Of a stretch of DNA of 64,000 nucleotides, positions 21,650 to 58,839 are shown one piece after another. This DNA comes from a virus. The notes beneath the pieces were generated by a model that saw nothing but the letters and a program-made list of their open reading frames with translations, searched no databases and had not been told where the DNA came from. The position numbers and the translations under genes were made by a program. Location of the stretch: IMG/VR virus record IMGVR_UViG_3300036770_003016. One strand, given 5' to 3'. Numbering within the stretch: position 1 is the stretch's first letter; every line of letters starts with the position of its first letter.

Positions 21650-22215
21650 TTGCGTCTCTGTGCCCTTTTAATTATCTTGGTTTGTTTCCTACGACCTTGA
21701 GAAAGAGAAACTTTACCTACTTTAGAAGTAAACTTAACACCGTTCATATGATCTAGTTCATGAAGGTAACATCTTGCAGTCAAACCGTCAAGCCATTTCC
21801 TTTGTACTTGTCCTTGTTCATCAATATATTCTGCATGTACAGACACAGGCCTCTCTACTTTCAAAAACAAACCTGGAAAAGAAAGACAACCTTCATTGTC
21901 CTTGGCAACTCCACCAGAAACTTCTAGTACTTTTGGATTGATACACGCCATCTGAAACTGATCTGTACCAATTACAAACACTCTTTCATATACACCACAT
22001 TGATTTGCAGAAAGACCAACACCACCATACAGTTTCATCGTCATCTTCAATCGTGCAATCAATTTATTCATTACAGGATTAGGTAACTGATCTGTATACT
22101 CAGGTATCTCATCATCTAACATTACATAGTTTTCACCATATAAAGGTAATGGTTCTATTGTCTCTTGTTTCTTAACTACTTCTTCAGAAGTATCAATTGT
22201 TAAAATTTCACTCAT
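21646..22215 (-). CDS. def: Peptide deformylase
   Basis: GVGLSANQ, EGCLSFP, HELDHMNG. Confidence 0.96.
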   Translation of the reverse strand: MSEILTIDTSEEVVKKQETIEPLPLYGENYVMLDDEIPEYTDQLPNPVMNKLIARLKMTMKLYGGVGLSANQCGVYERVFVIGTDQFQMACINPKVLEVSGGVAKDNEGCLSFPGLFLKVERPVSVHAEYIDEQGQVQRKWLDGLTARCYLHELDHMNGVKFTSKVGKVSLSQGRRKQTKIIKRAQRRK

Positions 22216-23924
22216 TTTATTATCTTTGAAAAATTCTTTACCTTCTCAAAACGAATTACATTACTAAACTTATCTTGTAGTATATCACCTTTATGCGATA
22301 TCACAAAGATATTTACACCTTCTAACATATGTAACAACTTCATCAACTCTTCTGTGCCGTTTGCATCAAGTGAAGAATCAAATGTCTCATCTAGTATCAG
22401 TAGATTTGTATTTGCAGAATTCTTCAGTTTAGCTACAGCACGCCAAGTCAACATCAATGCCATATCAATTCTTTGTTTCTCACCCTCAGAAAAGTTATGG
22501 TACGAAAAATCGTCACGATGTCTGGACTTAATTGATTCTTTAAACGATTCATCAAGGTTAAAGTTTACAAAGAAATCTAGTGACGATAAATACTTGTTTA
22601 CTAACTTATTGATTACTGGCAAGTACTGTTTTATGATTTTGGTTTTGATACCAGTATCTTTTAACAAATTAGAGGATACCTCATAATATGTATTTTCTTG
22701 CAATAATTCTTTTAAGTGCGATTGCTGTTTTATCAAACTCTCCCGTAGTTCTTGCAGCAGTTGTTCTTCTTGCGTGGACGATACTGACGTTGCTTTAAGA
22801 TCAGCAATCATTTTTCTCAAACGATCAATCAATTTATTTGTCTCAGTGATTGTTGTATTTGTCTTTGCAATCTCTACTTGTTTCTCAGTTATCTCTTTCT
22901 GAATATCAGCAATCTCGTTTAACTTAGTCTGTTCTTCATTCAGTTTCTTTTCGAGTTCTGAGAGACCATGTTTGCAACTAGTGACTTTAGCGGAGAGATC
23001 ATTAAGTTCTTCCTCTTTAAATTCACTGGCAATGGTTTGCCTACATGTTGGGCAATTATCATGTGTCTGAAAGAAACTGATATCTTTCTGAAATTTGGAT
23101 AAGTTGCTTTCAATCTGCGATTCAAGTTTTGTAATTTTCTTGACTTTAGCCTCTGTGTCAATTTTACTTGCAGTAACCAATTGCAATCCTCTTGTCTGTT
23201 GGGTAAGTGTTGCAACAGTTTCGAGTAAGGAGGATACGGTATTGCTATGACATTCAATCTCACTTTCATATTCTTTCACCTTGTCTTCATTGTTTTGTTT
23301 CAATTGATCTAGATGTTTCTTCTGTAGATCATACTTCTGTTTGTTCAATTCAAGTTCATGCTTTAAATCAACAATCAAAGTTTTATTGGCAGACAGTCTT
23401 TCTTTCACCAAAGAATTCATTGTAGAAAAGATTTGAATGTCTAACAAGTCTTCAATGATTGCACGGCGATCTGATGCAGACAATTGCATGAAAGGTGTGA
23501 ATGAAGCTGAACCAAGAATTACGATCTGTGTAAATGATTTGTAGTTTAGTTTCAGTACAAATCGTTCAAGGTATTCTTGATAGTCTCTAGATGCCGCATC
23601 TTGATTCAGTAGTTCATTGTTGCAGTAGATTTCAAAAACATTTGGTTTAATACCACGAACAATTTTATATGACTTGTTATTGGTATTAAACTCTAACTCT
23701 ACAACACAATCTTTACCATTGATTGAATTAATCAGATTAGGTTTGTTGATATTGCGAAAGGCTTTACCGAACAATGCAAAACACAATGCATCAAGTAAGG
23801 TTGACTTACCTGATCCATTTGAACCCACTATCAATGTATTGGCGTTAGTGTTAAGATTAACTTCTGTAAAGTGATTGCCTGTTGATAGTAAGTTTTTCCA
23901 TTTAATTGTTCGGAATATAATCAT
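22212..23924 (-). CDS. gp46: Recombination endonuclease ATPase subunit gp46 (Rad50/SbcC-like)
   Basis: GSNGSGKST, CPTC zinc hook, FSEGEKQRID, LILDE, ISH. Confidence 0.97.
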   Translation of the reverse strand: MIIFRTIKWKNLLSTGNHFTEVNLNTNANTLIVGSNGSGKSTLLDALCFALFGKAFRNINKPNLINSINGKDCVVELEFNTNNKSYKIVRGIKPNVFEIYCNNELLNQDAASRDYQEYLERFVLKLNYKSFTQIVILGSASFTPFMQLSASDRRAIIEDLLDIQIFSTMNSLVKERLSANKTLIVDLKHELELNKQKYDLQKKHLDQLKQNNEDKVKEYESEIECHSNTVSSLLETVATLTQQTRGLQLVTASKIDTEAKVKKITKLESQIESNLSKFQKDISFFQTHDNCPTCRQTIASEFKEEELNDLSAKVTSCKHGLSELEKKLNEEQTKLNEIADIQKEITEKQVEIAKTNTTITETNKLIDRLRKMIADLKATSVSSTQEEQLLQELRESLIKQQSHLKELLQENTYYEVSSNLLKDTGIKTKIIKQYLPVINKLVNKYLSSLDFFVNFNLDESFKESIKSRHRDDFSYHNFSEGEKQRIDMALMLTWRAVAKLKNSANTNLLILDETFDSSLDANGTEELMKLLHMLEGVNIFVISHKGDILQDKFSNVIRFEKVKNFSKIIK

Positions 23925-43823: not shown

Positions 43824-44719
43824 TATTGTTTATCCGTAGTTATAATAATTGAATCTGTAGAAAAAATTGTAGAATCTGTTGTAAATAAAGAAATAATATT
43901 ATTTGAATATTGTTGAGCATTAAAATATTCAGTTATTGTTTCAGTAAAACCAAATCCATCATCTGGTTCAGCATCTAATGGATTAGATTGAACTTCAACT
44001 TTTGCAGTTTTAGTATTCAAAGTAGGATCAACATATACATTACCTATAACTCCACCAAATCCACCTGTACCATCTAGACCACCTACATCACTATATTGAC
44101 CAATTAAACCACCACCAACTTTAACTGGTGGCCATATGTAACCTTTTGCAGTAAATGATAAGTCCCAAATAATAAGTCTTGTTGTTGACATATCACCTTC
44201 ATAATCAACATTTGATGTTACAGAATTCAATATGATTGGCATATCATATTTTTGTTCAAATGCATTTATAAAATCAACTGTTACAGTAAAATCTGGTGTA
44301 AAAAATGGAAGTATCTGTTCAAGTATTTGAGTACCGTCTTCTGTGTGTCTAACAAATATAGACAAAGAAAATTCAAAATTATATGGTACTGGAACAAACT
44401 GTGTACTTAAACCACTCTCAGAATTATATGCAAAATTTTGTAAAAGACTTTGTTGTTTTCTAGATATGTCATATGACAAACTATCAAGATTGAAAGACAT
44501 TCTTGGTACTACTGTGTTTACAGATTTTGTTAAATTTGGATCAGAAAGAATTCGTGTTAAATATTTTTCTTTAGCACCATAAGATAATGGTACAGTCATT
44601 TTTAATTGTGGTTGATTGGCTTTATTAAAACGAATAATTTCTAAATCATTAAAAAGTGTGCCAAATGCTACAACAACTTTTCTTATAGTTCGATTATAAA
44701 AATGTGGGTTACCTAACAT
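43823..44719 (-). CDS. gp15: Tail sheath stabiliser/terminator gp15
   Basis: FYNRTIRKVVVAFGTLFN, PRMSF, QILEQILPFFTP. Confidence 0.95.
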   Translation of the reverse strand: MLGNPHFYNRTIRKVVVAFGTLFNDLEIIRFNKANQPQLKMTVPLSYGAKEKYLTRILSDPNLTKSVNTVVPRMSFNLDSLSYDISRKQQSLLQNFAYNSESGLSTQFVPVPYNFEFSLSIFVRHTEDGTQILEQILPFFTPDFTVTVDFINAFEQKYDMPIILNSVTSNVDYEGDMSTTRLIIWDLSFTAKGYIWPPVKVGGGLIGQYSDVGGLDGTGGFGGVIGNVYVDPTLNTKTAKVEVQSNPLDAEPDDGFGFTETITEYFNAQQYSNNIISLFTTDSTIFSTDSIIITTDKQ

Positions 44720-45621
44720 TAACCTTCTCCAAATGGATTTTTTTCAGACCAATCTAATATTTCATCACTCTCAGTTTGTATACGATTGTTGTCTATAATA
44801 TCTTCAAATGCATTATCTAAAGTGGCAAAGTCTGAAATTATATTTGAAGTGTAAATTGAACCAGAAGTATTGCCAATTAAACTACCTGATCCAAAAGTAC
44901 CGTTTACTCTATAAAGTTCAACAAATTTATTTGGGCCATTTGTTACAGAACTATAAACTAAAGCTTGTGCTGTTGCATTTGCTAAATCTGTTCCTTGGTA
45001 AACAATTTCATCATTTATATATTGGCCAGAACCGCTTGATAATGTAATTTTTGTTCTTGCATAACTATCTCTAATTTGACTATCAATTTCTTCTATGCCA
45101 GTTTCTACAATCTCATTAGAGAAAACAAATTGTTTTAATTTAAGAGCATATACATAAACATTACCACCACGACCTCTGCCTAAAGTATAGAACATAGCCT
45201 GATCATTTTCATGTTCTACAAATGTAATCTCAAAAAAATTCTCAACTAAAGGTATGTAAACTAAATCGCCTTCTCTTGGTCGTATTAGATTAGACCCGGC
45301 TGTAGCAAATTTAAATCTTCTTCTAGATACTAATAATTGAACTTCATCACGAATCTCTAAACCAAATTTAGAAATAAAATCACCTTCACCATCCATGCCA
45401 GAGACATTCTCTAGATACATTTCAATTGAATGAGCTCTAGTAAATTGTTTTAGTGGTTCATCTCCAAACAAATAGTCTGTTTCTGATTCATTAGATTTAG
45501 GTAAATAATATACATCCATACCATGTATCTGCATGGCCTCAATTACAAGGTCTTCTACAAGAAGTTGTTCTTGTGTTATATGATTTGCTGGAAAATTGTT
45601 AAAATAGAAATTTGTTGCCAC
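44719..45621 (-). CDS. gp14: Neck protein gp14
   Basis: EQLLVEDLVIE, SKFGLEIRDE, RPREGDLVY, WSEKNPFG. Confidence 0.95.
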   Translation of the reverse strand: MATNFYFNNFPANHITQEQLLVEDLVIEAMQIHGMDVYYLPKSNESETDYLFGDEPLKQFTRAHSIEMYLENVSGMDGEGDFISKFGLEIRDEVQLLVSRRRFKFATAGSNLIRPREGDLVYIPLVENFFEITFVEHENDQAMFYTLGRGRGGNVYVYALKLKQFVFSNEIVETGIEEIDSQIRDSYARTKITLSSGSGQYINDEIVYQGTDLANATAQALVYSSVTNGPNKFVELYRVNGTFGSGSLIGNTSGSIYTSNIISDFATLDNAFEDIIDNNRIQTESDEILDWSEKNPFGEG

Positions 45622-45624
45622 AAT

Positions 45625-46578
45625 TTATCCAATAAAGATTTCAGAAGGAAGAGATCCCATCTGATACATTTCTTCTTCTATCTTACTTAGTTCTTCTTGT
45701 GCTTCTTGCATGATACGAGGGCCATCTAATGTAACTCCACCAGGTAATTGTATACCTGCAAACTTACTTAAATTAGTTCCCCATTGATATTTAATTTTTG
45801 CAGTAGCGTATCGTTTTAAAAATCTGTCATTCCAAACATCTGTATTTCCAGCAACTGTCATAGATACATTTGAACCAGATTGTGTTGGTTCATATACCAA
45901 TTCTATTTCTGTTGGAGATTTTATTTTACGGACTTGAAGACTTTCATTGCCAAAACTCACAACATCGTTTTCAACAATTTCTTGATCAAAAATTGTGTTA
46001 GTTCCAATTACAATTTTAGATGTGTTATCTAATGTAACTGTACCTGTAAGGTTTATAACATCTGGTATTAACTTACGATAACATTCTACAATTACATATT
46101 CACCAACATCTAAATCTCTTGTCCAATCTATGTCAAGAAACAATTTGTTTTGTTTACGATTGAATCTAAATTGTGGAGTACCAGAGAAAAGAAGATTGAG
46201 TGTTGTGATATGTTGCATTGTTATTTCATAAGACACATAAGATACCGATGTAAAATCATACAGATCATGAAGTCTTAATTGGTAACGCAGATCAAACATA
46301 TTGATTGATGAATTTGAGTCATCAAATCTTAATACACCAGTTACAAAAGTTACGGGATCTGGGCAGTAAATCCAACGACGATCAATATCAGCTTGAGTGA
46401 TTTGATGTTTCATATACAATTTTTCTGTACCATCATAGTGATAGTCTTGAAAAAACTGTAATGCATCATCTATACGATCATCAATTTGATCATCATCAAC
46501 ATTTATATCGATTACTGGCCATCCTAATCTACGAAGACAATAATCTTTAAATTGTGCTCTAGTTGTTGGTGTAGACAT
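45625..46578 (-). CDS. gp13: Neck protein gp13
   Basis: YCLRRLGWPVIDINVDDDQ, QWGTNLSKF.G.QLPGGVTLDG; late promoter TATAAATA at 46602-46609. Confidence 0.95.
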   Translation of the reverse strand: MSTPTTRAQFKDYCLRRLGWPVIDINVDDDQIDDRIDDALQFFQDYHYDGTEKLYMKHQITQADIDRRWIYCPDPVTFVTGVLRFDDSNSSINMFDLRYQLRLHDLYDFTSVSYVSYEITMQHITTLNLLFSGTPQFRFNRKQNKLFLDIDWTRDLDVGEYVIVECYRKLIPDVINLTGTVTLDNTSKIVIGTNTIFDQEIVENDVVSFGNESLQVRKIKSPTEIELVYEPTQSGSNVSMTVAGNTDVWNDRFLKRYATAKIKYQWGTNLSKFAGIQLPGGVTLDGPRIMQEAQEELSKIEEEMYQMGSLPSEIFIG

Positions 46579-46620
46579 ATAAAACCCTTTGTTTTATAGT
46601 CTATTTATACGAACAATAAT

Positions 46621-47388
46621 TTAAAGCTTTCTAATAATATCTTCTTCTATACATTCTTTTCCATACTGTATTTCAATAATACATAAATTATCTTTACCTA
46701 CATTTTCTAACCTGTGCCATTTTTTAAGTTCAACGAAATAACTGTCATGTTTTTGAATATTTTTTACTAAAACTTCTTCGTCATTAATCAATGTCGTTAT
46801 TTTACCAAACCCTTCTTCAACAAACCAAAACTCATTTCTGTTTTCATGGTATTGCATTGAAATTGATTTGCCAGGTTCCAATATCAATCTTTTAATCTTT
46901 GTTGTTTTAGAATCATAATATGTCATAAATTTACCCCATACTCTATTTTCGGTAGGGTGTTTCCATTCAGACAATATCCAACTAGAACTATTCTTTTTAT
47001 TTTCGCCACCTACACCAAATTTAAATTCTACTTGAGGATCGTCTTTAAAATTATTCATTTCTGGTATGTTGGTTTTTGTTCTATCTCCACCATTTGCAAA
47101 TATGATTTTTTGTTTTGGGAACATACTTTTTACTACAGAGATAGAATCACAAGCAGATCCATCAGAGTCATTAAAACCTATCGCCAACATCACGCCCTTT
47201 ATATTTTTAACTATATTAATTCTCTCTTCAAATGGCATGAATGCTTGGCCTTTTTTCTTTATCAACCACTCATCACTATTAACACCCACAACAACTCTTC
47301 CATAATTTTGAGCATCATGTATATAAGAAATATGCCCAGAATGAATGGGGTCAAAACCTCCAGTTACTATAACGATATTGTCTTTCAT
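46621..47388 (-). CDS. Cytidylyltransferase-family nucleotidyltransferase fused to a cupin (mannose-6-P isomerase type)
   Basis: TGGFDPIHSGH, FANGGDR, NSSSWIL; RVWG...SMQYH..R.E.W...WHRLEN...EIQYG..C.EEDI. Confidence 0.88.
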   Translation of the reverse strand: MKDNIVIVTGGFDPIHSGHISYIHDAQNYGRVVVGVNSDEWLIKKKGQAFMPFEERINIVKNIKGVMLAIGFNDSDGSACDSISVVKSMFPKQKIIFANGGDRTKTNIPEMNNFKDDPQVEFKFGVGGENKKNSSSWILSEWKHPTENRVWGKFMTYYDSKTTKIKRLILEPGKSISMQYHENRNEFWFVEEGFGKITTLINDEEVLVKNIQKHDSYFVELKKWHRLENVGKDNLCIIEIQYGKECIEEDIIRKL

Positions 47389-48938
47389 AATTTTTTTGAA
47401 GATAAAAAACTACCTTTTTTATTTAACAGAGATTCAATTTTTGTTTTGCGTTTTTTCATTTCTTCAGATGAATTACTTGGATTACCAAACAAAAATGATT
47501 TCATTTTTTTATAAGTATCGTCAATTCTGAAAATTCTATCCCAATTTTCATATTGATTTTTACCAGTCCAACCAATATTGTGTATAAATTTAGATTTAAT
47601 TTCTGGGTGTTGAAAAGTACAGTTAGGATCAGACTGTATTCCTCCTTTACCATACTTGGAATTTAAATTTACATATTTTAAATCAGTTTCTTTTAATGAC
47701 TTAAAAACTACAAATCCATCATATGGTTCACCCATAGGAAGAAGTCTTTCAAATTTATAATTTTCTATAAAAGCTTCATTGAATATTTTAATGTCATTAT
47801 GTTTACCATTAAAAATTAAAATACCACTTTCAACATGATTTAAATCCCAATTTTCTTCTACTTGACAAGCTAAAAAATTATCTCCCAAAATATTTTTTGG
47901 AAAATTTGTATAATCGGCTTGTTTAAATACGCAATCTCCATCAAGCCAAATTAAATAATCGTCATTATGTTTTTGTAATACATCTTGAATAACAAAAGAT
48001 TTATAACTAAATCTCTCTATCATTGTTTTTACATAATCAGCATGTTTTGATTTTTTTCTCAATTCTTTTTTCCAACTGTCATGATGTGGTATTTCTGTAT
48101 TAAAATCTACATATGTGATATTAGGATGATTTATTTGTGGTACATTTCCTTCATAATAAATTTTAGCTTTAAAAGAAGTATAAAAATTTGAAACTTGTAT
48201 AAATGTTTCTATCCATTTTTTACCATACAATAAAAAACCATTTTCATTAAATGTTGTAAAAAATAATATATTGTTAGATTGGTTTCTTTTTTCTTGCATT
48301 ATTAAATTAGACATTCTCCAAGAATCATAATCATTTAAATGATTCATATTACTAGCTGCATGATGAATAAAAATATTTTTTTCTATTAGTAATTCATTAT
48401 TTAAAAATTGAACATCTTCATTGTCAATATAATTATTTCCTATAACAGAATAGTATTCACGCACTGCTCGATGTAAATTATGCATACCATATGATTGTGT
48501 ATCTTTATCTGTTATTGATTTTGCTTCTTCAATCATATAGTCTAATGCTAATTTTAAAACTGGATGATTTCTTTCAGCTCCAAAAAAGAAATTAGCTATG
48601 TTGTCTAATTCTTTCATGAATACTGCTTTTACTTTACCATTTACAAACTCATTTAAATTTTTCTTACAAGTAACATCCAAATCTGAATAGTAACCTCCAT
48701 AAATATAAATTACTGCTAAACGCCAAAAATCTGCTCGCATAATTGGTTGTGGCAATGATTCATACAACCTATGCACTTCTTCTCCAAAATTCTGTAATAT
48801 AAAAGCAGAACACATTTCATCACTACTAATTTTTCTTTTTAAATGTGGATTACTATACTTCCAAGAATTGTATTGATTCTTTAAAGACTTTGGAATATCT
48901 TCAGTTTTCCAAGTTTGCCATAATATATTAGGTATCAT
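47385..48938 (-). CDS. Two-domain glycosyltransferase (GT32/OCH1-like plus a second GT-A domain)
   Basis: IPNILWQTWK, ADFWR...YGGYYSDLD; second domain FSYK...IWLDGD...ESG. Confidence 0.85.
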   Translation of the reverse strand: MIPNILWQTWKTEDIPKSLKNQYNSWKYSNPHLKRKISSDEMCSAFILQNFGEEVHRLYESLPQPIMRADFWRLAVIYIYGGYYSDLDVTCKKNLNEFVNGKVKAVFMKELDNIANFFFGAERNHPVLKLALDYMIEEAKSITDKDTQSYGMHNLHRAVREYYSVIGNNYIDNEDVQFLNNELLIEKNIFIHHAASNMNHLNDYDSWRMSNLIMQEKRNQSNNILFFTTFNENGFLLYGKKWIETFIQVSNFYTSFKAKIYYEGNVPQINHPNITYVDFNTEIPHHDSWKKELRKKSKHADYVKTMIERFSYKSFVIQDVLQKHNDDYLIWLDGDCVFKQADYTNFPKNILGDNFLACQVEENWDLNHVESGILIFNGKHNDIKIFNEAFIENYKFERLLPMGEPYDGFVVFKSLKETDLKYVNLNSKYGKGGIQSDPNCTFQHPEIKSKFIHNIGWTGKNQYENWDRIFRIDDTYKKMKSFLFGNPSNSSEEMKKRKTKIESLLNKKGSFLSSKKL

Positions 48939-49654
48939 TTTTGAATATACTCTTTATTTAAATCTTTCAAAGTAAAAGTATTTAAATTATTTGTTACTGT
49001 TGACAACTTTAAATTTTCTTGAGTTTTTTCTGTAGAAATTCTTTGAGCAGTTTTTAATGGTCCTAAAATATTCATGACTTCAGCTGGAGCTGCATTTGGT
49101 GAGATCATATTTGCTCTATTTTGTAGAGTCAACAATAAAGATTCTTCTTGATGTGTATTTACATTTTGTGTGTCAAAAGAACCATCATCAAGTTCAGCTT
49201 TTATTTTAGACCAAAGATCAAGTTCACGAATTCTATCTTTAGCAACTAATTGCATGTTGGCTCTACCATAAAGTTTTTGTTCAATTTCAATTTGAATAAG
49301 TTCTTTCTCTAATTCATCTTCTTCTTTTTCTAAATTTCTTTGAAGTTTTTTAATCTCTATTTCGTTTTTACGATATTCAAAAGAAAGTTGCATTGTAGTT
49401 TCAAAAAAAGCATTTTGCTCACGGACACATTGCCAATATTTTGATGCATTAGTTGGAAATTTAGCATCATTTAAAACCGACACTCTCATTTCCGTTTCAG
49501 TTCTAAAAATTTGTTTTTTGGACCATGTATCTTTTAGTTCGTCTTTGAGTTTTACCAATTTAGAGAAATCGTCTTCATCAAGAATATTAATTAAAAATTC
49601 TTTTTGATTGGCAAAAGTTGGTATTATATTACGCAATTCATTGTTGTTTTCCAT
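48935..49654 (-). CDS. Coiled-coil hypothetical protein linked to the Kelch cassette
   Basis: FRTETEMRVSVLND.KFPT.ASKYWQCVREQ, followed by a long coiled coil. Confidence 0.75.
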   Translation of the reverse strand: MENNNELRNIIPTFANQKEFLINILDEDDFSKLVKLKDELKDTWSKKQIFRTETEMRVSVLNDAKFPTNASKYWQCVREQNAFFETTMQLSFEYRKNEIEIKKLQRNLEKEEDELEKELIQIEIEQKLYGRANMQLVAKDRIRELDLWSKIKAELDDGSFDTQNVNTHQEESLLLTLQNRANMISPNAAPAEVMNILGPLKTAQRISTEKTQENLKLSTVTNNLNTFTLKDLNKEYIQK

Positions 49655-49680
49655 ATTAAATCCTATAAAAATTATGTAAA

Positions 49681-50715
49681 TTATATTGTATTTATTGCAG
49701 GTACAATTTGATTGTATTCTTCTGTTGAAGATGATGGATAACCAAAACTATCCCCACCAAAAGTTAATGCTGCATTTTGAATGCCAGCACCAGCATGTTC
49801 TACTCTAGCTTGAATTAAATTACCACCAGCTGACCATGATGTACCATCGTATTCTTCTGTTAATGAAAGACGACCCCAATTATAACCACCAAAAGCTAAT
49901 CCTGCGTCTGCGGTACCAGCACCAACTAGAGAATCTCTACCTGTACTTAAATTACCACCAGCTGACCATGATGTACCATTGTATTCTTCTGTTGAGAGTG
50001 TAAGACCACTAGCCCAACCACCAAAAGCTAATGCTGCATCTTGAGTACCAGTACCAGCAAAAGAATACCTACCTGTAATTAAATTACCTCCAGCTGACCA
50101 TGATGTACCATTGTATTCTTCTGTTGAGGTTGATAACAGACCACTGGAGTTAAAACCACTAAAAGCTAATCCTGCATCTTGAGTACCAGCACCAGCATGT
50201 TCATATCTACCTGTAATTAAATTACCACCAGCTGACCATGATGTACCATTATATTCTTCTGTTGAGGATAGATAAGCATTATTTATATCAAAACCACCAA
50301 AAGCTAATCCTGCATCTTGAGTACCAGCACCAGAATGTTTATATCTACCTGTAATTAAACTACCACCAGCTGACCATGATGTACCATTGTATTCTTCTGT
50401 TGAGGATAAACGAGTAAAACCACTATTATAATTAGCAAAACCACCAAAAGCTAATGCTGCATATTGAGTACCAGCACCAGCATGTTCTAATCTAGCTTGA
50501 ATTAAATTACCACTAGTTGACCATGTTTGAGTTATAGCATAATTTAAAATTAAACCTACCGCCTTTATTTTACCTGTAGACATATTATAAAAAATATCGC
50601 CAATATCAGATACAGTTGGATTAGGCATATCGCCAATATAACTATTTACCAAACTAGAATTTTCTAAATTAGTATTTGAAATTTCTTTTGCCAATAATCG
50701 TGTTATAACGCCCAT
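49681..50715 (-). CDS. Kelch-type six-bladed beta-propeller protein A
   Basis: 6 x (R..HAGAGTQ.A.LAFGG-loop-STEEYNGTSW). Confidence 0.88.
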   Translation of the reverse strand: MGVITRLLAKEISNTNLENSSLVNSYIGDMPNPTVSDIGDIFYNMSTGKIKAVGLILNYAITQTWSTSGNLIQARLEHAGAGTQYAALAFGGFANYNSGFTRLSSTEEYNGTSWSAGGSLITGRYKHSGAGTQDAGLAFGGFDINNAYLSSTEEYNGTSWSAGGNLITGRYEHAGAGTQDAGLAFSGFNSSGLLSTSTEEYNGTSWSAGGNLITGRYSFAGTGTQDAALAFGGWASGLTLSTEEYNGTSWSAGGNLSTGRDSLVGAGTADAGLAFGGYNWGRLSLTEEYDGTSWSAGGNLIQARVEHAGAGIQNAALTFGGDSFGYPSSSTEEYNQIVPAINTI

Positions 50716-50718
50716 TTT

Positions 50719-51750
50719 TCACTCTGATAAAAAAATTTGTTCGAATAGATCAGTATTAGCAGTAATTGAGTATTCTTCTGTTGAATTAGATGATGAACCA
50801 CTAATATACCCACCAAAAGCTAATGCTGCATATTGAGTACCAGCACCAGCATGTTCATATCTAGCTTGAATTAAATTACCACCAGTTGACCATGATGTAC
50901 CATTATATTCTTCTGTTGAGGATAGATCACTAAAATAATACCCACCAAAAACTAATCCTGCATATTGAGTACCAGCACCAGCATGACTATATCTAGTTGT
51001 AATTAAATTACCTCCAGCTGACCATGATGTACCATTGTATTCTTCTGTTGAATTACCAACAACATTAGAAGGAATCCCACCAATAGCTAATCCTGCATCT
51101 TGAGTGCCAGCACCAGCATGACTATATCTAGCTTGAATTAAATTACCACCAGTTGACCATGATGTACCATTATATTCTTCTGTTGAGGATGTAACGGTAA
51201 AAGTAACACCAGATATCCCACCAATAGCTAATGCTGCATCTTGAGTACCAGCACCAGCATGATCATATCTAGCTGTAATTAAATTACCTCCAGTTGACCA
51301 TGAAAACCCATTATATTCTTCTGTTGAGGATGTAATGGTAAAATCAACAGTAGATGTCCCACCAAAAAGTAATGCTGTATCGTGAGTACCAGCACCAGCA
51401 TGATCATATCTAGCTGTAATTAGATTACCACGGGATATCCATATTGTGCCATTATATGTTTCTGATGAGTTTCTAGCAAAAAAATCAAGCCCACCAAAAG
51501 CTAATCCTAATCCTCCATCTTGATTACCAGCACCAGCAGCAGAAATTCTGGATCGAATTAAATTACCACCAGTTGACCATGTTCCAGGTAATCTTTTTCC
51601 AGATACATATCTTAGGTTATCACCAATATTATAGGTTAACACCTGACCAAATTTTCTGTCATTTAAATCATAAAAAAATACATTTCTAAGAATAAAAGAT
51701 GAACTTTCTCCACGAATTTTGCTTGCAAATTTTCTGGTAATTGTTCCCAT
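50719..51750 (-). CDS. Kelch-type beta-propeller protein B
   Basis: 6 Kelch-like blades. Confidence 0.88.
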   Translation of the reverse strand: MGTITRKFASKIRGESSSFILRNVFFYDLNDRKFGQVLTYNIGDNLRYVSGKRLPGTWSTGGNLIRSRISAAGAGNQDGGLGLAFGGLDFFARNSSETYNGTIWISRGNLITARYDHAGAGTHDTALLFGGTSTVDFTITSSTEEYNGFSWSTGGNLITARYDHAGAGTQDAALAIGGISGVTFTVTSSTEEYNGTSWSTGGNLIQARYSHAGAGTQDAGLAIGGIPSNVVGNSTEEYNGTSWSAGGNLITTRYSHAGAGTQYAGLVFGGYYFSDLSSTEEYNGTSWSTGGNLIQARYEHAGAGTQYAALAFGGYISGSSSNSTEEYSITANTDLFEQIFLSE

Positions 51751-51761
51751 ATTTTATTATT

Positions 51762-52070
51762 TCAAACAGGCAAATCGACAGATGTTGGTCTTTCACCTAA
51801 CATTTGTATTCTTCTATTTTTCATCTCATCTGTTTCGTTCTCTATAACTAAATTAAACTGTTCATCCCAATTGGTTTGCATAGACTCTAAACATATATTT
51901 TGAGCTTCTTCTAAAGTTTTTTCAACGCCATTAACTCTATTTTTCCATTCTAATGCAACATTATCAGCAACAGCGTAAATATTTCCAGCATGCCCACTAA
52001 AATGACCAAGTTCTCTGTCTTGATGAGTGATAAAACCTTTACCAGTATTTATTGCTTGAATATATTTCAT
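51762..52070 (-). CDS. Small hypothetical protein within the Kelch cassette
   Basis: NTGKGFITH...GHAGNIY. Confidence 0.7.
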   Translation of the reverse strand: MKYIQAINTGKGFITHQDRELGHFSGHAGNIYAVADNVALEWKNRVNGVEKTLEEAQNICLESMQTNWDEQFNLVIENETDEMKNRRIQMLGERPTSVDLPV

Positions 52071-52084
52071 ATATTTTCCTTTAT

Positions 52085-53098
52085 TTAATTATAAACCATA
52101 CTTCTAGTTGTTTCTGAATGTAAAGCAGCTGTTTTTGATCCATGAGATGCTCCAGTTCTATCATAATTGTTAGTTTCTCGAAATAATAATGTACTAGTAT
52201 TTGTCCATGATATGCCATCATATTCTTCTACAATATTTGACCCCCAAGTAACTTCAACATATGTAATACTTCCATAAATAATAGTTTGATCTATATTTAA
52301 AGAACACGCATTTGCTTCTACTCGAGCTCGATTGGTATTAGTGCTAGTTGACCATGATGTACCATTGTATTCTTCTGTTGAGTATGTAAGATAAGGTGCA
52401 TTACTAAAAGTACCACCAATAGCTAATGCTGCATCTTGACTACCAGCAGCAGAAGGTACATTTCTACCTGTAACTAAATTACCACCAGCTGACCATGATG
52501 TGCCATTATATTCTTCTGTTGTTGAGGTTACTCCAGCATTACCAAAAGTTAATGCTGCATCTTGAGTGCCAGTAGCATCATTCCTAAACCTATTTGTAAT
52601 TAAATTACCACCAGCTGACCATGATGTACCATTGTATTCTTCTGTTGAGTTTAATGTATTACTATTAACATCCCAACCACCAATAGCTAATGCTGCGTTT
52701 GGACCACCAGTTCCAGCGAAATATATTCTAGATGTAATTATGTTACCCTCAGCTGACCATGTTATACCATTATATTCTTCTGTTGTGTTTGTATAGTCCC
52801 AAACAATCCGACCACTAAAAGCTAGTGCTGCATTTTGAGTGCCAGAACCACGATGAGTATTCCTACTACTGATCATATTGGATATATAAGTCCAAATTTT
52901 AGTTTGTGGAACTATTGTACGAATATGATATCCATCGAAATAGAGTTCTATAAACTTTAATTTGTTTTCAGTTGTGTTATACCATATTAAAGCATTGTTG
53001 CTTGAATTTGGTTCATAATCAGTAGACCTTTTAACTAAAGGAATACCAACAGGACCATTACCATAAATACTGTTTGCAAATTTTCTAGCTTTAGACAT
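52085..53098 (-). CDS. Kelch-type beta-propeller protein C (more diverged)
   Basis: 5 clear blades plus 1 degenerate blade. Confidence 0.85.
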   Translation of the reverse strand: MSKARKFANSIYGNGPVGIPLVKRSTDYEPNSSNNALIWYNTTENKLKFIELYFDGYHIRTIVPQTKIWTYISNMISSRNTHRGSGTQNAALAFSGRIVWDYTNTTEEYNGITWSAEGNIITSRIYFAGTGGPNAALAIGGWDVNSNTLNSTEEYNGTSWSAGGNLITNRFRNDATGTQDAALTFGNAGVTSTTEEYNGTSWSAGGNLVTGRNVPSAAGSQDAALAIGGTFSNAPYLTYSTEEYNGTSWSTSTNTNRARVEANACSLNIDQTIIYGSITYVEVTWGSNIVEEYDGISWTNTSTLLFRETNNYDRTGASHGSKTAALHSETTRSMVYN

Positions 53099-53109
53099 TT
53101 TTTTATTTA

Positions 53110-55416
53110 CTATAAAATAGGAAGATATCTTACGACAATTTCAGCTTGAGCGCTTGGAGCTTCTACAAACACTAAACTAGTACCGCTTACAGTATAATCT
53201 TCAGTTGGTTCAAAACAAAGACCATTCACAAATACTAAAATATTATCAACATTTCTTCCAGATTCCCATAATGAAAAAGAAGTTGTAGTACCATTACCAG
53301 TAAATTTTTGTCTTGAATATGATAATGTAACTGATGTTGCAACAGAAATTGTACCAGATGCTAAATCTGTTAATGTCGTATTAGCTGTACCTGTAACATC
53401 TCCAGTAAGTGTAACTGTTATGACTGGATCAGGTTTATTGGTCATATTGGCCCAATCAAGGTCTACACTACCTCCAATTGGTCCCCATTCTGTACCATTA
53501 TGTCCTTCAAATCCTTTTGTTTGTGGATTATATCTGAACATTCCTTCTGAACCGTATGTGTCTAAAATAGAATAATCAAATGTTGTTGACTCACTTTGAT
53601 AAATTGTTATGATATAATTAGTTGCTGGTTGATTCGTCACAACAGTTAATGCTGCATCTGATGGAGTATTGTATAGTTCTGTAAGTTCTGGTGGAATTCT
53701 AAATTCTAAAGCATCAAAGAAACCTAGATAATTATCAATTTTTTCTACAAATTCTAATTGTATTGTTGTTGGAGAACTTCTATTCTGTAAAAAACTTGGA
53801 TATTGACTAGAATAATAGACAGTAGGGATAGTAATATCATACAGCTCACCAGGCACTAAATCGTCAAATGATTTGGTTGTTGTGAAAGTGCCAGTTGGTG
53901 CATATATCCACATTCTTGAAGTTCTATCTGTAACACCAATTTGAGGATACAGAGTGTCCATATTTAAAACTATATTAATACATTCATCATTTGTAGTTGC
54001 AGTTCCATTAGCTTCAACTACAGATGTATTAAGATTCATTTCAAATGGTTCAGTTGTTTCAGATGGAACTATTTGATTAAATTTTAAATATGTTGGATTA
54101 GTCGAAGAAACTGTTATTCCTCCGTCAACAATAATTTCTGGAGTGGCATATAACTGAGTGTTTATTGGTGTGATAACATTGTCTACAATAACAATATCGG
54201 TCAATACCAATGAAGTACCAAAAATGTTTTCACCAAAAATATCTTTAACAGATATGTCAGAGTTAATGTTTAATAAAGGAGTAACAACTTCTATTTCAGT
54301 AGGTACCAACTCTTTTATAGTTGTTAGACTTTTATTATATTCTTCTGTTGAGGATACATAACTAGTGTTATATCTATCACCACCAAAAGCTAATGCTGCA
54401 TCTTGAGTACCAGCACCAGCATGCCAGGCTCTACCTGCAATTAAATAACCACCATATGACCATGATGTACCATCGTATTCTTCTGTTGAGGAAAAATATG
54501 TATAATTAGCAATACCACCAAAAGCTAATCCTGCATTTTGAGTACCAGCACCAGCATGACTTGATCTAGCTGTACTTAAACTACCACCAGCTGACCATGA
54601 TGTACCATCGTATTCTTCTGTTGAAGATAGATAATTGTCAACACTATACCCACCAAAAGCTAATCCTGCATCTTGAGTACCAGCACCAGCATGATTTGAT
54701 CTAGCTGTAATTAAATTACCACCAGATGACCATGATGTACCATTGTATTCTTCTGTTGAGGATAGATAAGTGTTATTCCCACCAAAAGTTAATCCTGCAT
54801 CTTGAGTACCAGCACCAGCATTCCAGCCTCTAGCTGTAATTAAATTACCACCAGCTGACCATGATGTACCATCATATTCTTCTGTTGAGAATTGAAAACC
54901 ACCATCAGTTTGGCCACCAATAGCTAATCCTGCATCTTGAGTACCAGCACTAGCTAAATCATCTTTAGCTTGAATTAAATTACCACCAGCTGACCATGAT
55001 GTACCATTGTATTCTTCTGTTGAGGATAGATAATCACTAGATTGACCACCAAAAGCTAATGCTGCATCTTGAGTACCAGCACCAGCATGAAACATTCTAC
55101 CTGTAATTAAATCACCACCAACTGACCATGCTGCAATTAATACTTGTACATCAGTTTCTACATCTTGAATTTCTGTAGAAACTGATTGATCTGCCAAAAG
55201 ATTTATCTCTTCAAAGTAAATTCCATTTTTCAAATATATGTTGTACCAAGAGTTAGTTGATAGACCTATGTCATATACACCATCAATTGCTGGAACAACA
55301 TCTTCCATTATTTGAGAAAGGTCAGCTTGGCCACCTTCTGCCGAAACGCCAGAGTACCCAGAATAACCTGATACTCCAACATAAGTGCTGCCTAAAAAAT
55401 TACTTAATCTGATCAT
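53110..55416 (-). CDS. Tail-fibre-like protein D with an internal six-blade Kelch propeller
   Basis: SGYSGYSG N-terminus, 6 blades, GMFRYN...FEGHNGTEWG fibre motif, C-terminal FTGNGTTTSF...VFVNG...DYTVSG domain. Confidence 0.85.
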   Translation of the reverse strand: MIRLSNFLGSTYVGVSGYSGYSGVSAEGGQADLSQIMEDVVPAIDGVYDIGLSTNSWYNIYLKNGIYFEEINLLADQSVSTEIQDVETDVQVLIAAWSVGGDLITGRMFHAGAGTQDAALAFGGQSSDYLSSTEEYNGTSWSAGGNLIQAKDDLASAGTQDAGLAIGGQTDGGFQFSTEEYDGTSWSAGGNLITARGWNAGAGTQDAGLTFGGNNTYLSSTEEYNGTSWSSGGNLITARSNHAGAGTQDAGLAFGGYSVDNYLSSTEEYDGTSWSAGGSLSTARSSHAGAGTQNAGLAFGGIANYTYFSSTEEYDGTSWSYGGYLIAGRAWHAGAGTQDAALAFGGDRYNTSYVSSTEEYNKSLTTIKELVPTEIEVVTPLLNINSDISVKDIFGENIFGTSLVLTDIVIVDNVITPINTQLYATPEIIVDGGITVSSTNPTYLKFNQIVPSETTEPFEMNLNTSVVEANGTATTNDECINIVLNMDTLYPQIGVTDRTSRMWIYAPTGTFTTTKSFDDLVPGELYDITIPTVYYSSQYPSFLQNRSSPTTIQLEFVEKIDNYLGFFDALEFRIPPELTELYNTPSDAALTVVTNQPATNYIITIYQSESTTFDYSILDTYGSEGMFRYNPQTKGFEGHNGTEWGPIGGSVDLDWANMTNKPDPVITVTLTGDVTGTANTTLTDLASGTISVATSVTLSYSRQKFTGNGTTTSFSLWESGRNVDNILVFVNGLCFEPTEDYTVSGTSLVFVEAPSAQAEIVVRYLPIL

Positions 55417-55460
55417 TTATAAACCCTCGGTGCTTTTTATATTTTTTTTAATGTTTTTGA

Positions 55461-55904
55461 TTATAAAGTCGGCCATACTATGTTAGATGGATCATTTTGA
55501 TTTGTCACATCTCGTAAGTTTTGTATATAGACATCTATCTTATTTATCTCTTCTGGACTGTCATCTGTTGGTATTCCCAATCTAATTTGAGACTGATATC
55601 TAAATAATCTCCATTCAACTTCTTTTATCTTTTCGTCTCTTTTGAATCTTATCGTTTGCCATTCTCTTTCAACTATTTCTGCTATCTCTTCTTCTGAGAA
55701 ATCTACAATTTGCCAAGTTGTACCTGACCATACAAGTCTTTGTCTTTCATTATGAATTGGTGGGTCTTCAGCTAAAACATAACCAGCATTAGCAATTTCT
55801 TCTTCTGTGAAAGTGTTTTTTTCTGTACGAGTCAAACCATTAGACAATCTAATCCTGTCTGGTAAAGAACTTGGATAACCACCTTTATAACTATATAAAC
55901 TCAT
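55461..55904 (-). CDS. Tail fibre assembly chaperone-like protein
   Basis: W..IR.KRD..I....W...Y.Q.LRDVT.Q.DP.NIVWP C-terminal signature. Confidence 0.8.
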   Translation of the reverse strand: MSLYSYKGGYPSSLPDRIRLSNGLTRTEKNTFTEEEIANAGYVLAEDPPIHNERQRLVWSGTTWQIVDFSEEEIAEIVEREWQTIRFKRDEKIKEVEWRLFRYQSQIRLGIPTDDSPEEINKIDVYIQNLRDVTNQNDPSNIVWPTL

Positions 55905-55918
55905 TTTTTAAAACTCCT

Positions 55919-57661
55919 TTAATAACCAGTGCCTGACATATAACTACCAGCATATATCGTCCATGATGTTCCAGTTGAATTGCCAACAAATACATAACTT
56001 TGGTTTGCAGTCAAAGTAAATGATGCGTAAGCTGTATTTGTTGAGGCTATCATTCTTTGGCCAGTTGTTCGATTATGATTTCCAACTAAAATTTCTACAA
56101 CAGGAACATTTCCAGTTGAAGTTTTATTAAAAAATGTAGCTTCATATACAATTCCTGGCGAACCTACTGTACCACTAGTACTTGCATTTCCTTCGTATCT
56201 TATACGGGTATAATTTGTTCCAGAAGAAATAGTTGATACCCTTTGATATGAATTGTCAGCAGCTCCAATATGTATTTTATTAAAAGGTGGATTAGTTGCA
56301 CTTAAACTGCTGTATGCAGTTGAACCAGAACCAAAAGTTAAATATGTATTTGAACCAACAAAAACAGTTGTATAATTAGTAGAATTGATAGTGAATGTTG
56401 GTATAGTTACGGATATATTCGCATCATCAGAAGAAGAGTTTTGTAATCCTGTCCAACCTGATCCAGGATATGAAGCTCCACCAGCACCTAATGTTGGCGC
56501 TTTTGTTCCAGATACTCTTGTGTATGATGACCCAGCTGGAGTTTGTGATGTATCATTGATAGTTACTGAACTTGAAGTTGCTATTATGGTTCCACTAATG
56601 CTGTTAGCTCTTAAACGAAATTGAAAAGATTCTGCTGCACTTTCAGTAGTTAAATCTGAATTTAATGTAAATGTTACTGAGCCAGCACTACCGGATATAG
56701 CAACACTACCTCCACTAGTAGCATTAGCAGGTGAACTAAAATCAGCAGCAGTAACAGAACCAGAAGTAATCATTTCCCAATATAATGTTCCACTAGAAAA
56801 ATTACCACTAGTAATGCTTATATTAAATGTGACAGAACTACCTTCATTAACTGAACTTGTAGTTGGAGTAACAGTAGCTGTAATTGGAGTAGAACTATCC
56901 GTAATAGTTAAAGAAGCACTACCTAAATTGAAACCATTATAACTGACTTGAACATTTAAAGTTTCTGTACCTTCAGTAGTAACATCTGCAATTGTTGTAT
57001 AAGTAACATTTGTAGTTCCAGGACCTATATCAATCAAACTAGGTAAAGATGTAAAATCCGAAGCATTTGCTGTAGAACCAGTATATGAAAGGCTAGCAGC
57101 TGCATCGGTAAAAATAGAAGATAATGAACCTACATTTCCAATCGTAATCTGTAGAGTGCTTGATGAAGAATTTTCATTTATTGTAGAAGATGTTAAAGTT
57201 ACAGAACTAGTACAAGCAGGGATGTTGTAGGTTCCAGAAGTGTATACAACTGGACCACTAGTGCTACCTGTTCTAATTTCAATTTGAAATGTTTTAGTTG
57301 TTTTTGATGTATTTCCTATAAATTTTGTAGCTACGTAAAAAGAACCAGTTTGTGTAGCACTAAACACAGTAAAACTTCCAGAAGTAACACCACTTGCAAA
57401 ATCAGCTGAACTTGAATTTGAATGTAATATTGTATAATATAATGTTGTGTTTGTTAAAATACCTTCAGTTGTTAAAGTTATTACTTGTGATGTATATTCT
57501 AAAATTGTTCCGCTGTTAAGTGATAATGACAAATATTTAATTGTTTGTGGCCAAAGATTAGATTTTTTTGCATTGTAAGCATCAAACCTATCGTAAACAC
57601 CTGGTGCTTCTGCTAAAGAAGTTTCTCTTTTTACACCAATTAAACCAGTATTTCTTCTCAT
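55919..57661 (-). CDS. Ser/Thr-rich adhesin-like virion protein with Calx-beta-like repeats
   Basis: SVNEGSSVTF, ADF, D.TTEG.E.F, VTINDTS. Confidence 0.75.
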   Translation of the reverse strand: MRRNTGLIGVKRETSLAEAPGVYDRFDAYNAKKSNLWPQTIKYLSLSLNSGTILEYTSQVITLTTEGILTNTTLYYTILHSNSSSADFASGVTSGSFTVFSATQTGSFYVATKFIGNTSKTTKTFQIEIRTGSTSGPVVYTSGTYNIPACTSSVTLTSSTINENSSSSTLQITIGNVGSLSSIFTDAAASLSYTGSTANASDFTSLPSLIDIGPGTTNVTYTTIADVTTEGTETLNVQVSYNGFNLGSASLTITDSSTPITATVTPTTSSVNEGSSVTFNISITSGNFSSGTLYWEMITSGSVTAADFSSPANATSGGSVAISGSAGSVTFTLNSDLTTESAAESFQFRLRANSISGTIIATSSSVTINDTSQTPAGSSYTRVSGTKAPTLGAGGASYPGSGWTGLQNSSSDDANISVTIPTFTINSTNYTTVFVGSNTYLTFGSGSTAYSSLSATNPPFNKIHIGAADNSYQRVSTISSGTNYTRIRYEGNASTSGTVGSPGIVYEATFFNKTSTGNVPVVEILVGNHNRTTGQRMIASTNTAYASFTLTANQSYVFVGNSTGTSWTIYAGSYMSGTGY

Positions 57662-58839
57662 AGGAATGTCAATTCTGCTAATCTGTTATAACTAGTGCCA
57701 TTAAAACTTGTAAACTGTCCGCCAACATAAAATGTTTTGGTTGTTCCTGGTTTTAAAACTAATGTAGCAACAGCGTTATTAAAACCAGTTCCTATATTAA
57801 AGTTCGTATCTAAAGTACCATCAGAGTTCAATCTAAATAATCTTCCGTGAGTAATACCATTAAAAGCACCAAAATAACCATAAACTAATATTTTATTATC
57901 AGGTTGTATATGCACACCAGATACAGTTCCCCCGTCAGAACCTGTACCAATATTACTATTAAAAGTTGTATCTTCGACAAGAGTAGCACCTATTCTTCGG
58001 CTAAGACCTCTAGCATTTCCAGCAATAAAATTTCCAGTGAAATATATTTCAGTGCTTGATATTGTTAAAGAATTTACAATACTAGAATTGTATGTATAAG
58101 AAGTAACTGCACTACCATCATAATTTAATCTAACATTATAATTTCTAGTAATAGAATTAAATTGTGTGAAACTACCAACAACAATAAATTGACTGGAAGA
58201 TGTGCTTGTTATTTTAAAAACTGTACCATTAGCACCTCCACCAAAATTAAAAGTAGTTGTATCTCTTGTTCCATCACTATTTAATCCTGCTATTCTATTA
58301 GCACTCACTCCATTATAAAATTGAAAATCTCCACCAATCCATATTTTTCCAGTTGAATGTAAAAAAATAGTTTGAACTTGTCCTGTAGGTCCAATTCCAC
58401 CAGTATTAAAAGATGTGTCTAATGTGCCATCACTATTTAATCTTAAAAAACGAATCTGTTGGACGCCATTATAACCATTAAAATTTCCTCCAACTAATAT
58501 TTTACCATCAGGTTGCAAAACAATATCTGATACTACAGAATCAAAACCAGAACCGCCTGGATTAAAAGTAGTATCTACACTGCCATTAGGCAATAATCTA
58601 ACTATTCTATTTTGGGTGGTTCCTTTATAGGTATCAAAATTTCCTCCAACTAATAATTTACCATCAGGTTGTACAACTATTGTATTAACTATTGCTGTAC
58701 CACTTGTTAATGAAAAACCAGTACCAACATCTAATGTTGAAGATGAATTTAAAAATTTTAAATGTAAATCTCCAACACCAGTAAAACTATTTTTTTGGCC
58801 TGTTCCAATTAAACCACCATCTTTAGTATAAAACCCCAT
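57658..58839 (-). CDS. Delta-60 repeat beta-propeller protein
   Basis: Repeated QPDGKILVGGNF...RLNSDGTLDTSFN. Confidence 0.88.
   Translation of the reverse strand: MGFYTKDGGLIGTGQKNSFTGVGDLHLKFLNSSSTLDVGTGFSLTSGTAIVNTIVVQPDGKLLVGGNFDTYKGTTQNRIVRLLPNGSVDTTFNPGGSGFDSVVSDIVLQPDGKILVGGNFNGYNGVQQIRFLRLNSDGTLDTSFNTGGIGPTGQVQTIFLHSTGKIWIGGDFQFYNGVSANRIAGLNSDGTRDTTTFNFGGGANGTVFKITSTSSSQFIVVGSFTQFNSITRNYNVRLNYDGSAVTSYTYNSSIVNSLTISSTEIYFTGNFIAGNARGLSRRIGATLVEDTTFNSNIGTGSDGGTVSGVHIQPDNKILVYGYFGAFNGITHGRLFRLNSDGTLDTNFNIGTGFNNAVATLVLKPGTTKTFYVGGQFTSFNGTSYNRLAELTFL

Follow-up and report, generated by a model that had tools for sequence, protein, structure and literature searches.

Four neighbouring genes of an uncultured phage raise the question of how protein repeats can be so alike in the DNA of their scaffold, both within and between genes, when the loops that the scaffold carries differ from repeat to repeat. 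The genes, here called A, B, C and D, are located at positions 49681-55416 of a stretch of 64,000 nucleotides from the IMG/VR virus record IMGVR_UViG_3300036770_003016 (hereafter the window), and they are predicted to encode beta-propellers built from Kelch repeats, or blades. An earlier note on this DNA had proposed a possible system for the diversification of receptors, based on gene conversion that exchanges blades or loops. The reading that we find probable is that the cassette encodes Kelch propeller adhesins of the tail-fibre cluster, with a scaffold that evolves in concert and with old, distinct loops on one face.

Predicted Kelch propellers and their variable loops

All four open reading frames (ORFs) of the cassette are co-oriented on the minus strand. 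Gene A (49681-50715; 344 amino acids) encodes a head of 64 residues, with one helix and short strands, and a predicted six-bladed Kelch propeller with blades at 49702-50523. Similar to gene A, gene B (50719-51750; 343 amino acids) encodes a head of 57 residues and a predicted six-bladed propeller, with blades at 50758-51579, and matches phrog_27227 (E 1.5e-47). Gene C (52085-53098; 337 amino acids) encodes a head and a propeller of five recognisable blades and a degenerate sixth one. Gene D (53110-55416; 768 amino acids) encodes a conserved anchor at the N-terminus, which contains a short stretch of Gly-X-Ser, followed by a predicted six-bladed Kelch propeller and a C-terminal region of ~400 amino acids. 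It matches phrog_27227 (E 1e-44) and, on residues 709-761, phrog_10330, annotated as 'virion structural protein'. The propeller of gene D, with blades D1-D6 (residues 97-364; 54325-55128, minus strand), was delimited by the blade alignment and by nhmmer blade matches.

Blades were extracted by anchoring on the motif EEYNGTSW. This gave 23 clear blades (six in A, six in B, five in C and six in D), which together with the degenerate sixth blade of gene C account for the about 24 Kelch-like blades reported in the earlier note. The blades have 42-49 amino acids, and the elements LAFGG, EEY, W and R are kept in 20-23 out of the 23, a consensus that is shared by the wider family. Kelch repeats have ~44-56 amino acids, in which a GG doublet comes after a hydrophobic strand and Tyr, Trp and Arg are conserved. 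Single sequences scored below the Pfam gathering thresholds for Kelch (Kelch_1 15.4 against 20.1 bits, Kelch_4 15.0 against 21.6, and PF24681 18.7 against 50), as the family is too divergent for the single-repeat models of Pfam. A profile of 52 family members, searched against PDB sequences, matched the SAKe designs (E 1.7e-22), KLHL12 (E 1.3e-14) and Keap1 (E ~3e-9). The best matches among solved structures are these symmetric designer Kelch proteins (SAKe), because the blades are near-consensus. The Pfam scan detected no BTB or catalytic domain in A-D.

The AlphaFold2 model of gene A has a mean predicted local distance difference test (pLDDT) score of 89.8, reaching ~97-98 in the propeller, and contains four strands per repeat. 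Foldseek with this model returned Kelch domains as best matches (E 2e-17, target-normalised template modelling scores of 0.59-0.81), and among viral models it returned Kelch proteins of jumbo phages that are annotated as virion structural. The strands of each repeat in the model follow the order WSAGGx, xGAGT, AGLAF and STEEY; therefore, the segment at the conserved Arg corresponds to the D-A loop and the segment after GG to the B-C loop. The four-strand meander puts both loops on one face and the conserved tight QD and NGT turns on the opposite one, a placement given by the prediction and the strand topology rather than by coordinates. The profile matches, the model and the Foldseek results thus support A-D as predicted six-bladed Kelch beta-propellers with the variable slots on one face. 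This is in agreement with the earlier note, which had recognised the repeats as Kelch blades forming propellers and had assigned the variable slots to the D-A and B-C loops of the same face.

Two variable slots per blade were found, as the earlier note had described. The entropy is ~3 bits at the two positions after the conserved Arg (R+1 and R+2) and in the loop after GG, and the nucleotide identity in the slots is 0.36-0.43, compared with 0.83-0.86 in the framework. The variation is not confined to them, since columns 3, 9 and 10 vary too. All 23 B-C loops are distinct, with no loop reused in a second place among the 23 blades, and twenty out of the twenty-three D-A triplets are distinct. 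The loops are 5-12 residues long. S, W and Y are overrepresented in them 2.6-2.8-fold, N is overrepresented as well, and K is nearly absent; the enrichment in D and G that had been proposed along with that of the other residues was not observed. A Tyr/Trp/Ser-rich, Lys-poor composition is typical of binding surfaces. The ratio of nonsynonymous to synonymous divergence (dN/dS) is 6.9 at columns 9-10 of the D-A segment and 4.8 at column 3. From the sequences we infer that the loops are probably under selection.

Homogeneity of the scaffold DNA

The 15-mer GACCATGATGTACCA is present in exactly 15 copies, all inside A-D, which confirms the count of the earlier note; it was found 0 times in 100 shuffles. 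Tandem Repeats Finder detected arrays with periods of 135-141 nucleotides. Framework codons are fixed by position: Ser at column 2 is encoded by TCA in 21 out of 21 blades, Ala at column 23 by GCA in 20 out of 20, and Ala at column 28 by GCT in 17 out of 17. Codon identity at matching framework residues is 0.89-0.91, compared with 0.44 expected from the codon usage of the window, and the internal repeats of a DUF5122 propeller, which served as control, have a codon identity of 0.62 at the same residue. Between the blades of the window and those of 60 other phage loci, the mean codon identity is 0.56, so that at synonymous sites the blades of the window are closer to each other than to those of other genomes. 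The likeness of the framework DNA even at synonymous sites, as claimed before, is thereby borne out. The term near-identical goes too far, as the framework has a synonymous divergence (dS) of ~0.14 and the longest exact repeat is 67 nucleotides.

For A, B and D, the framework identity of blades from one gene is 0.861 and that of blades from different genes 0.858 (permutation p = 0.22). Blades that share an index in different genes are 0.866 identical and those of different index 0.857, so that the blade index is irrelevant in these three genes. The codon identity of gene C to the other genes is 0.79-0.86, compared with 0.88-0.93 among A, B and D; gene C is thus the most diverged and also the least homogenised copy, as expected if exchange depends on identity. 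An equal framework identity within and between genes at the DNA level requires recombination between the copies. In the four-gamete test, thirty out of the sixty-six pairs of informative framework sites fail within the 150-nucleotide unit.

At the N-terminus, A, B and C have heads with an amino acid identity of 29-40%, and the codon identity of these heads at shared residues (~0.57) corresponds to the background level. In global alignments, the three heads are as distant from each other as from the heads found in other phages, and BLASTP of the heads across the family loci gave almost no matches. Judged by these values, A, B and C are old paralogues with heads saturated at synonymous sites and with young blade scaffolds. 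Because the heads are saturated and the blades are not, the propellers would have been renewed after the separation of the genes, which needs recombination between loci.

These patterns point to a scaffold homogenised by gene conversion, that is, to a slow concerted evolution, conversion being read from the pattern in the sequences. In the proposed mechanism, non-reciprocal homologous recombination (gene conversion) would homogenise the DNA of the blade scaffold across A-D, and it is probably driven by the phage's own UvsX-type machinery. The window encodes UvsX (715-1767) and a gp46-like gene (22212-23924), in line with the T4-type recombination genes named earlier. The loops would be older than the scaffold, and their differences would most likely be maintained by selection that favours distinct binding surfaces. 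The process would be ordinary evolutionary recombination, with no programmed generator of diversity. Of the gene conversion suggested in the earlier note, recombination between blade copies is thus retained, on the grounds of the equal identities and the saturated heads, and frequent swapping of blades or loops is not.

With nhmmer and tblastn, blade-like sequences were found in the 64-kb window only within the four intact genes, and therefore the window has no store of silent cassettes and no template of a diversity-generating retroelement (DGR). Neither loop duplication nor silent donor blades, as in variable lymphocyte receptors (VLR), pilE/pilS and vlsE, were found in the window. Similarly, a DGR is not indicated, as there is no template repeat in the window and the loop lengths vary; reverse transcriptase was not scanned for in every ORF. 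Near-identical contig pairs of other family members have 0 blade differences, a weak test, as the pairs are near-identical throughout. In family pairs with flanks 85-90% identical, no recognisable orthologous loops were found and the within-genome identity equals the between-genome identity (~0.75), which in these sequences fits gene turnover and is silent on the mechanism.

Otherwise identical pairs of IMG/VR contigs were also observed to differ only at a single short patch per pair, located outside the Kelch blades and with 50-150 differences per 500 nucleotides (L020:3000-4500 against L022, L002:1000-2000 against L001, and L013:6000-7300 against L011). Such patches might belong to other genes for repeats or fibres, or stem from variation in assembly.

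Tail-fibre context and the replaceable island

The genes A-D are tightly packed in a late structural operon, with collagen-like fibre genes upstream of the cassette and neck genes downstream. Directly upstream of gene D is a gene for a tail-fibre assembly chaperone (55461-55904, minus strand), which matches PF16778 Phage_tail_APC (E 1.4e-8, above the Pfam cut-off) and several PHROG tail-fibre-assembly families. Homologues 59-60% identical to A end in a Peptidase_S74 chaperone domain, also above the Pfam cut-off. Peptidase_S74 is an intramolecular chaperone and a hallmark of trimeric fibres and spikes. A putative tail fibre of Pelagibacter phage Mosig shares 58% identity with the C-terminal 60 amino acids of D. 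This C-terminal module (~60 amino acids, residues ~700-768, 53113-53300) reaches 85% identity with parts of many fibre-like proteins from metagenomes, which carry varied domains such as S74, Collar, Mtd_N, collagen, T7 tail and gp9/10, and it looks like a widely exchanged fibre module.

From this context we infer that A-D serve the tail-fibre apparatus as receptor-binding or adhesin modules. Gene D would connect a propeller with a conserved virion anchor at the N-terminus and with a C-terminus of the fibre type, and A, B and C would be minimal proteins with a head of ~60 amino acids and a propeller. Binding would use the face of the D-A and B-C loops, which is rich in Tyr, Trp, Ser and Asn and different in every blade.

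The nearest relative, here called G001, is 98% identical to the source phage over the structural core and 96% identical over positions 44001-46609 of the window. The match resumes at 55349-57714 with 81% identity, with nothing matching in between, and G001 does not possess any Kelch gene. Since the flanks match and the interior does not, an island of 8.7 kb (46610-55348) was exchanged as a unit. The island contains a nucleotidyltransferase-cupin gene, a glycosyltransferase gene, an ORF of 239 amino acids, A, B, an ORF of 102 amino acids, C and most of D. At the same position, G001 has a protein of 179 amino acids with Gly-X-Ser repeats followed by a protein of 1721 amino acids (L081:10583-16307, identical with G001:C1:25582-31306). 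The ORF of 179 amino acids opens with the motif MIxLSNFL...SGYSGYSG, the same ~22 residues as in D. This anchor of D, its first ~22 codons (55349-55416, minus strand), is common to both phages, and the left recombination breakpoint of the island is placed at the anchor end.

The variation that is visible between relatives is thus replacement of the whole cassette and not loop shuffling, and the shuffling of loops or blades expected in the earlier note was not seen, as G001 carries a different cassette. Between related phages, the cassette changes by replacement of the whole island, with breakpoints in the conserved D anchor and next to the gene of a 317-amino-acid Ad2-type head-tail adaptor (neck) protein (45625-46578), which adjoins the island. 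The hypervariable host-recognition cluster of pelagimyophages and cyanomyophages also carries glycosyltransferases, which have been proposed to alter the host surface (PMC7029224). Both the breakpoint in the D anchor and the glycosyltransferase content of the island match this cluster.

Among the other genes of the island, the nucleotidyltransferase-cupin gene and the glycosyltransferase-like gene of 517 amino acids (46621-48938) are absent from G001 at this locus. The ORF of 239 amino acids (48935-49654, minus strand), directly downstream of A, has a weak match to phrog_1409, of unknown function, and the ORF of 102 amino acids between C and B (51762-52070, minus strand) has no significant family match. 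The orthologue of the chaperone in G001 has 149 amino acids. The same fibre cluster contains the DUF5122 propeller (57658-58839; E 1.6e-60), unrelated to the Kelch genes. Its counterpart in G001 matches only in pieces, with ~70% nucleotide identity, compared with 81-95% for the neighbouring genes, and by its sequence it also looks like a fast-evolving recognition part. The 179-amino-acid protein of G001 consists almost entirely of Gly-X-Ser (GYS) triplets with a hydrophobic helix at the end, and its neighbour of 1721 amino acids is of unknown family. Next to the island, G001 is 96-98% identical to the window towards the neck and structural genes and 81% identical towards the fibre genes.

The source phage is uncultured and is represented by a metagenome contig of 173,929 bp. 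Its major capsid protein is at most 64% and its terminase at most 50% identical to those of any isolated phage in the searched collection, and the window contains genes typical of marine T4-like phages, a PstS-like phosphate-transporter subunit gene and a CobS-like gene (6648-7664 and 15256-16440). On these sequences, the source is an uncultured T4-like aquatic myovirus without a cultured close relative in that collection. The exact C and D proteins are recorded on two contigs, the longest being of 173,929 bp. The exact A and B proteins are absent from the protein collection, and a homology search with A did not return A itself; this could reflect different gene calls or a difference between assemblies.

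For the cassette, megablast and tblastn against isolated phages gave only a 28% match, in a Paenibacillus phage. The closest homologues were 62% identical in the protein search and also 62% identical among IMG/VR loci, and exact 33-mer framework probes had 0 matches in viral and metagenome contigs.

Competing explanations, related systems and meaning

Several points weigh against adhesins with a concertedly evolving scaffold. A neighbour test of the framework of the pairwise homoplasy index (PHI) type gave no significant result, as incompatibility has already reached saturation. In Mantel tests that compared framework segments, r was ~0.2 and p above 0.1; their power is low, too low to separate short conversion tracts from a star-like burst, which fits equally. 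In several other phages of the family, blade identity is ~0.75 both within and between genomes, and codon identity within loci ranges from 0.46 to 1.0 across the family. With such variable homogeneity within genomes, homogenisation would be episodic or lineage-specific and no fixed property of the family, and the one observed here could reflect one past episode. No cassette-bearing relative was found in the searches. In the two main slots, dN is 0.9-1.3 and dS 0.5-0.8, values saturated and affected by indels, so that dN/dS is uninterpretable there. Finally, as the phage is uncultured, the presence of A-D in the virion and their binding to receptors are putative.

The burst-like pattern would also arise by recent amplification, in which one blade gave rise to a propeller that was copied onto several heads in a single episode, strong positive selection remodelled the loops, and no homogenising takes place now. 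Highly repetitive propellers, including Kelch, are common and have been explained in this way (PMC9218822). The Mantel and PHI-type results fit such an event, as does a homogeneity that varies so widely across the family and is absent in several phages, and a framework dS of ~0.14, and not ~0, would mean that the event was not very recent. Amplification leaves unexplained why synonymous sites have reached saturation in the heads of A, B and C but not in the blades, for which recombination between loci is needed anyway. Copying of whole propellers also predicts that same-index blades are closer between genes, the opposite of what was found (0.866 against 0.857), and the loops of all 23 blades would need complete replacement with indels within a dS of ~0.14. 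We regard amplification as possible, though unlikely. Far less credible is the active diversification of the earlier note, with frequent swaps of blades or loops among A-D in a VLR-like or pilS-like manner without a reverse transcriptase. The conserved flanks of 40-67 nucleotides around each loop would permit it, the equal likeness of blades between and within genes, the many four-gamete failures and the encoded UvsX and gp46-like genes agree with it, and T-even adhesins offer a precedent, as chimeric specificities arise there when recombination takes place at or close to conserved motifs (PMC3157838). It is contradicted by 23 blades in which no loop occurs twice, by the lack of silent donor blades elsewhere in the window, by identical blades in near-identical contigs of other family members, and by a nearest relative that differs by replacement of the whole cassette. 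The framework dS of ~0.14 further makes exchange rare on the timescale of point mutation. The combinatorial, VLR-like repertoire is therefore not upheld.

Another explanation concerns the function, namely that the propellers are intracellular or secreted Kelch proteins, such as binders of host proteins, sugar-acting enzymes or lectins, which would remodel the host surface together with the adjacent glycosyltransferase and nucleotidyltransferase. A-D share the replaced island with these two genes, the glycosyltransferases of such clusters have been proposed to alter the host surface (PMC7029224), and Kelch domains elsewhere are protein-binding adaptors or enzymes. We think this improbable in view of the packing of A-D in the late structural operon right after the tail-fibre chaperone, of the anchor that D shares with the G001 fibre protein and the C-terminus that it shares with annotated tail fibres, of the homologues fused to S74 tail-fibre chaperone domains, and of the lack of a BTB or catalytic domain in the Pfam scan. 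An assembly artefact, by repeat collapse or chimeric joining, might be suspected in a window that comes from a metagenome contig, the more so as the exact A and B sequences are absent from the protein collection, where C and D are present. Collapse of the repeats had been named in the earlier note as what would undo its proposal. It is hardly conceivable here, as the longest exact repeat of 67 nucleotides is shorter than usual reads and the largest assembly k-mers, and as collapse removes copies and would not make 23 unique loops. In addition, all four frames are open, with six blades each, proper closure and a high-confidence fold, and C and D are identical on two contigs.

By analogy, the mechanistic precedent closest to a scaffold evolving in concert comes from fungi, namely the het-d/het-e/HNWD family of Podospora anserina, in which WD40 repeats evolve in concert within and between ten loci and surface positions diversify (Paoletti, Saupe and Clave 2007, PMC1805685). 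The likeness extends to propeller repeats on several paralogous loci, concerted within and between loci, with a few highly variable positions per repeat on the interaction surface. In contrast to the Kelch propellers of a tail-fibre cluster, the fungal proteins are intracellular receptors of the STAND/NLR type with WD40 repeats of high internal conservation. Their repeat number varies widely and four point positions vary, whereas the phage cassette is fixed at six blades and varies whole loops of different lengths. The cassette also has no mutator comparable to repeat-induced point mutation (RIP).

Among phages, the closest precedent by analogy is gp38 of T-even phages. In gp38 (and gp37), conserved glycine-rich motifs lie between hypervariable segments, and recombination in or near the motifs leads to chimeric adhesins (Trojet et al. 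2011, PMC3157838). Similar to the Kelch cassette, gp38 belongs to host recognition in the T4 superfamily, with conserved core motifs and hypervariable binding loops, and it combines a conserved N-terminal attachment with a variable specificity part, as seen for D and G001. However, gp38 is not a propeller and has no relation in sequence or fold to the Kelch genes. It is a single gene with four variable segments and with exchange between phages, whereas the cassette has 23 blades in four genes and internal partners.

Highly repetitive beta-propellers amplified from single blades, including Kelch lineages and viruses, were described by Pereira and Lupas (2022, PMC9218822). That amplification is recent and inside one gene, whereas the identity in the cassette is equal across four genes and the heads of A-C appear to be old paralogues. 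Propeller platform domains with receptor-binding sites are also present in Staphylococcus aureus phage phi11 (PMC4901313) and Brochothrix phage NF5 (PMC12917162). The likeness is that receptor-binding sites are located on a propeller domain, within a baseplate or fibre protein; unlike those of the cassette, the propellers are five-bladed, non-Kelch and single-copy, and belong to siphophage baseplates for Gram-positive hosts. We know of no report of internal DNA homogenisation in them.

The likeness to DGR systems (Mtd type), VLR and pilE/pilS, that is, a stable scaffold with variable ligand-binding residues, would be a functional analogy only. A DGR pairs a template repeat with a variable repeat, and changes occur only at template adenines, without a change in length. 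In VLR, pilE/pilS and vlsE, an expression site receives copies from arrays of donor cassettes that are not themselves expressed. The Kelch cassette differs from DGR, VLR and pilS in its variable loop lengths and in that all copies are intact ORFs of the expressed type, with no template repeat or silent cassette in the window. Rapid turnover was likewise not seen in the near-identical contig pairs of other family members, which are a weak test.

The family of the Kelch genes corresponds to phrog_27227, which has no assigned function, and is nearly absent from isolated phages. More than 2,851 proteins were found at E below 1e-5, and 598 stretches were confirmed in IMG/VR. Most common among 117 unique family ORFs of the retrieved loci is an architecture with a short head and six blades, of ~320-345 amino acids; the blade number is six in 74 out of 117 family ORFs of 300-350 amino acids. 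Many phages carry arrays of Kelch family genes, with up to 33 units in one locus. One homologue, P0057, is flanked by large unannotated genes.

To our knowledge, concerted evolution of propeller repeats has so far been described mainly for fungal and bacterial immune-type receptors. Homogenisation across the four genes A-D would mean that it operates in a virus too. As the evidence stands, these are known processes in a new setting and no new principle; new are the Kelch blades, the four genes in one phage genome, and the variation of whole loops rather than of point positions. Frequent exchange, if it took place, would provide a new way of changing the host range. We consider it doubtful that the 23 blades form an internal library from which UvsX-type exchange of scaffold-flanked blades or loops produces new receptor-binding faces frequently enough to matter in natural populations. 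If true, such exchange would amount to a retroelement-free evolution of host range, comparable in phages to the WD40 system of fungal NLRs and equivalent to a shuffling of gp38 motifs within a single genome. The family is very common in uncultured aquatic phages, often in arrays of several genes. Because of the fusions to S74 chaperone domains and the Tyr/Trp/Ser-rich variable face, its placement in the tail-fibre cluster makes it a concrete candidate for host recognition by many uncultured myoviruses.

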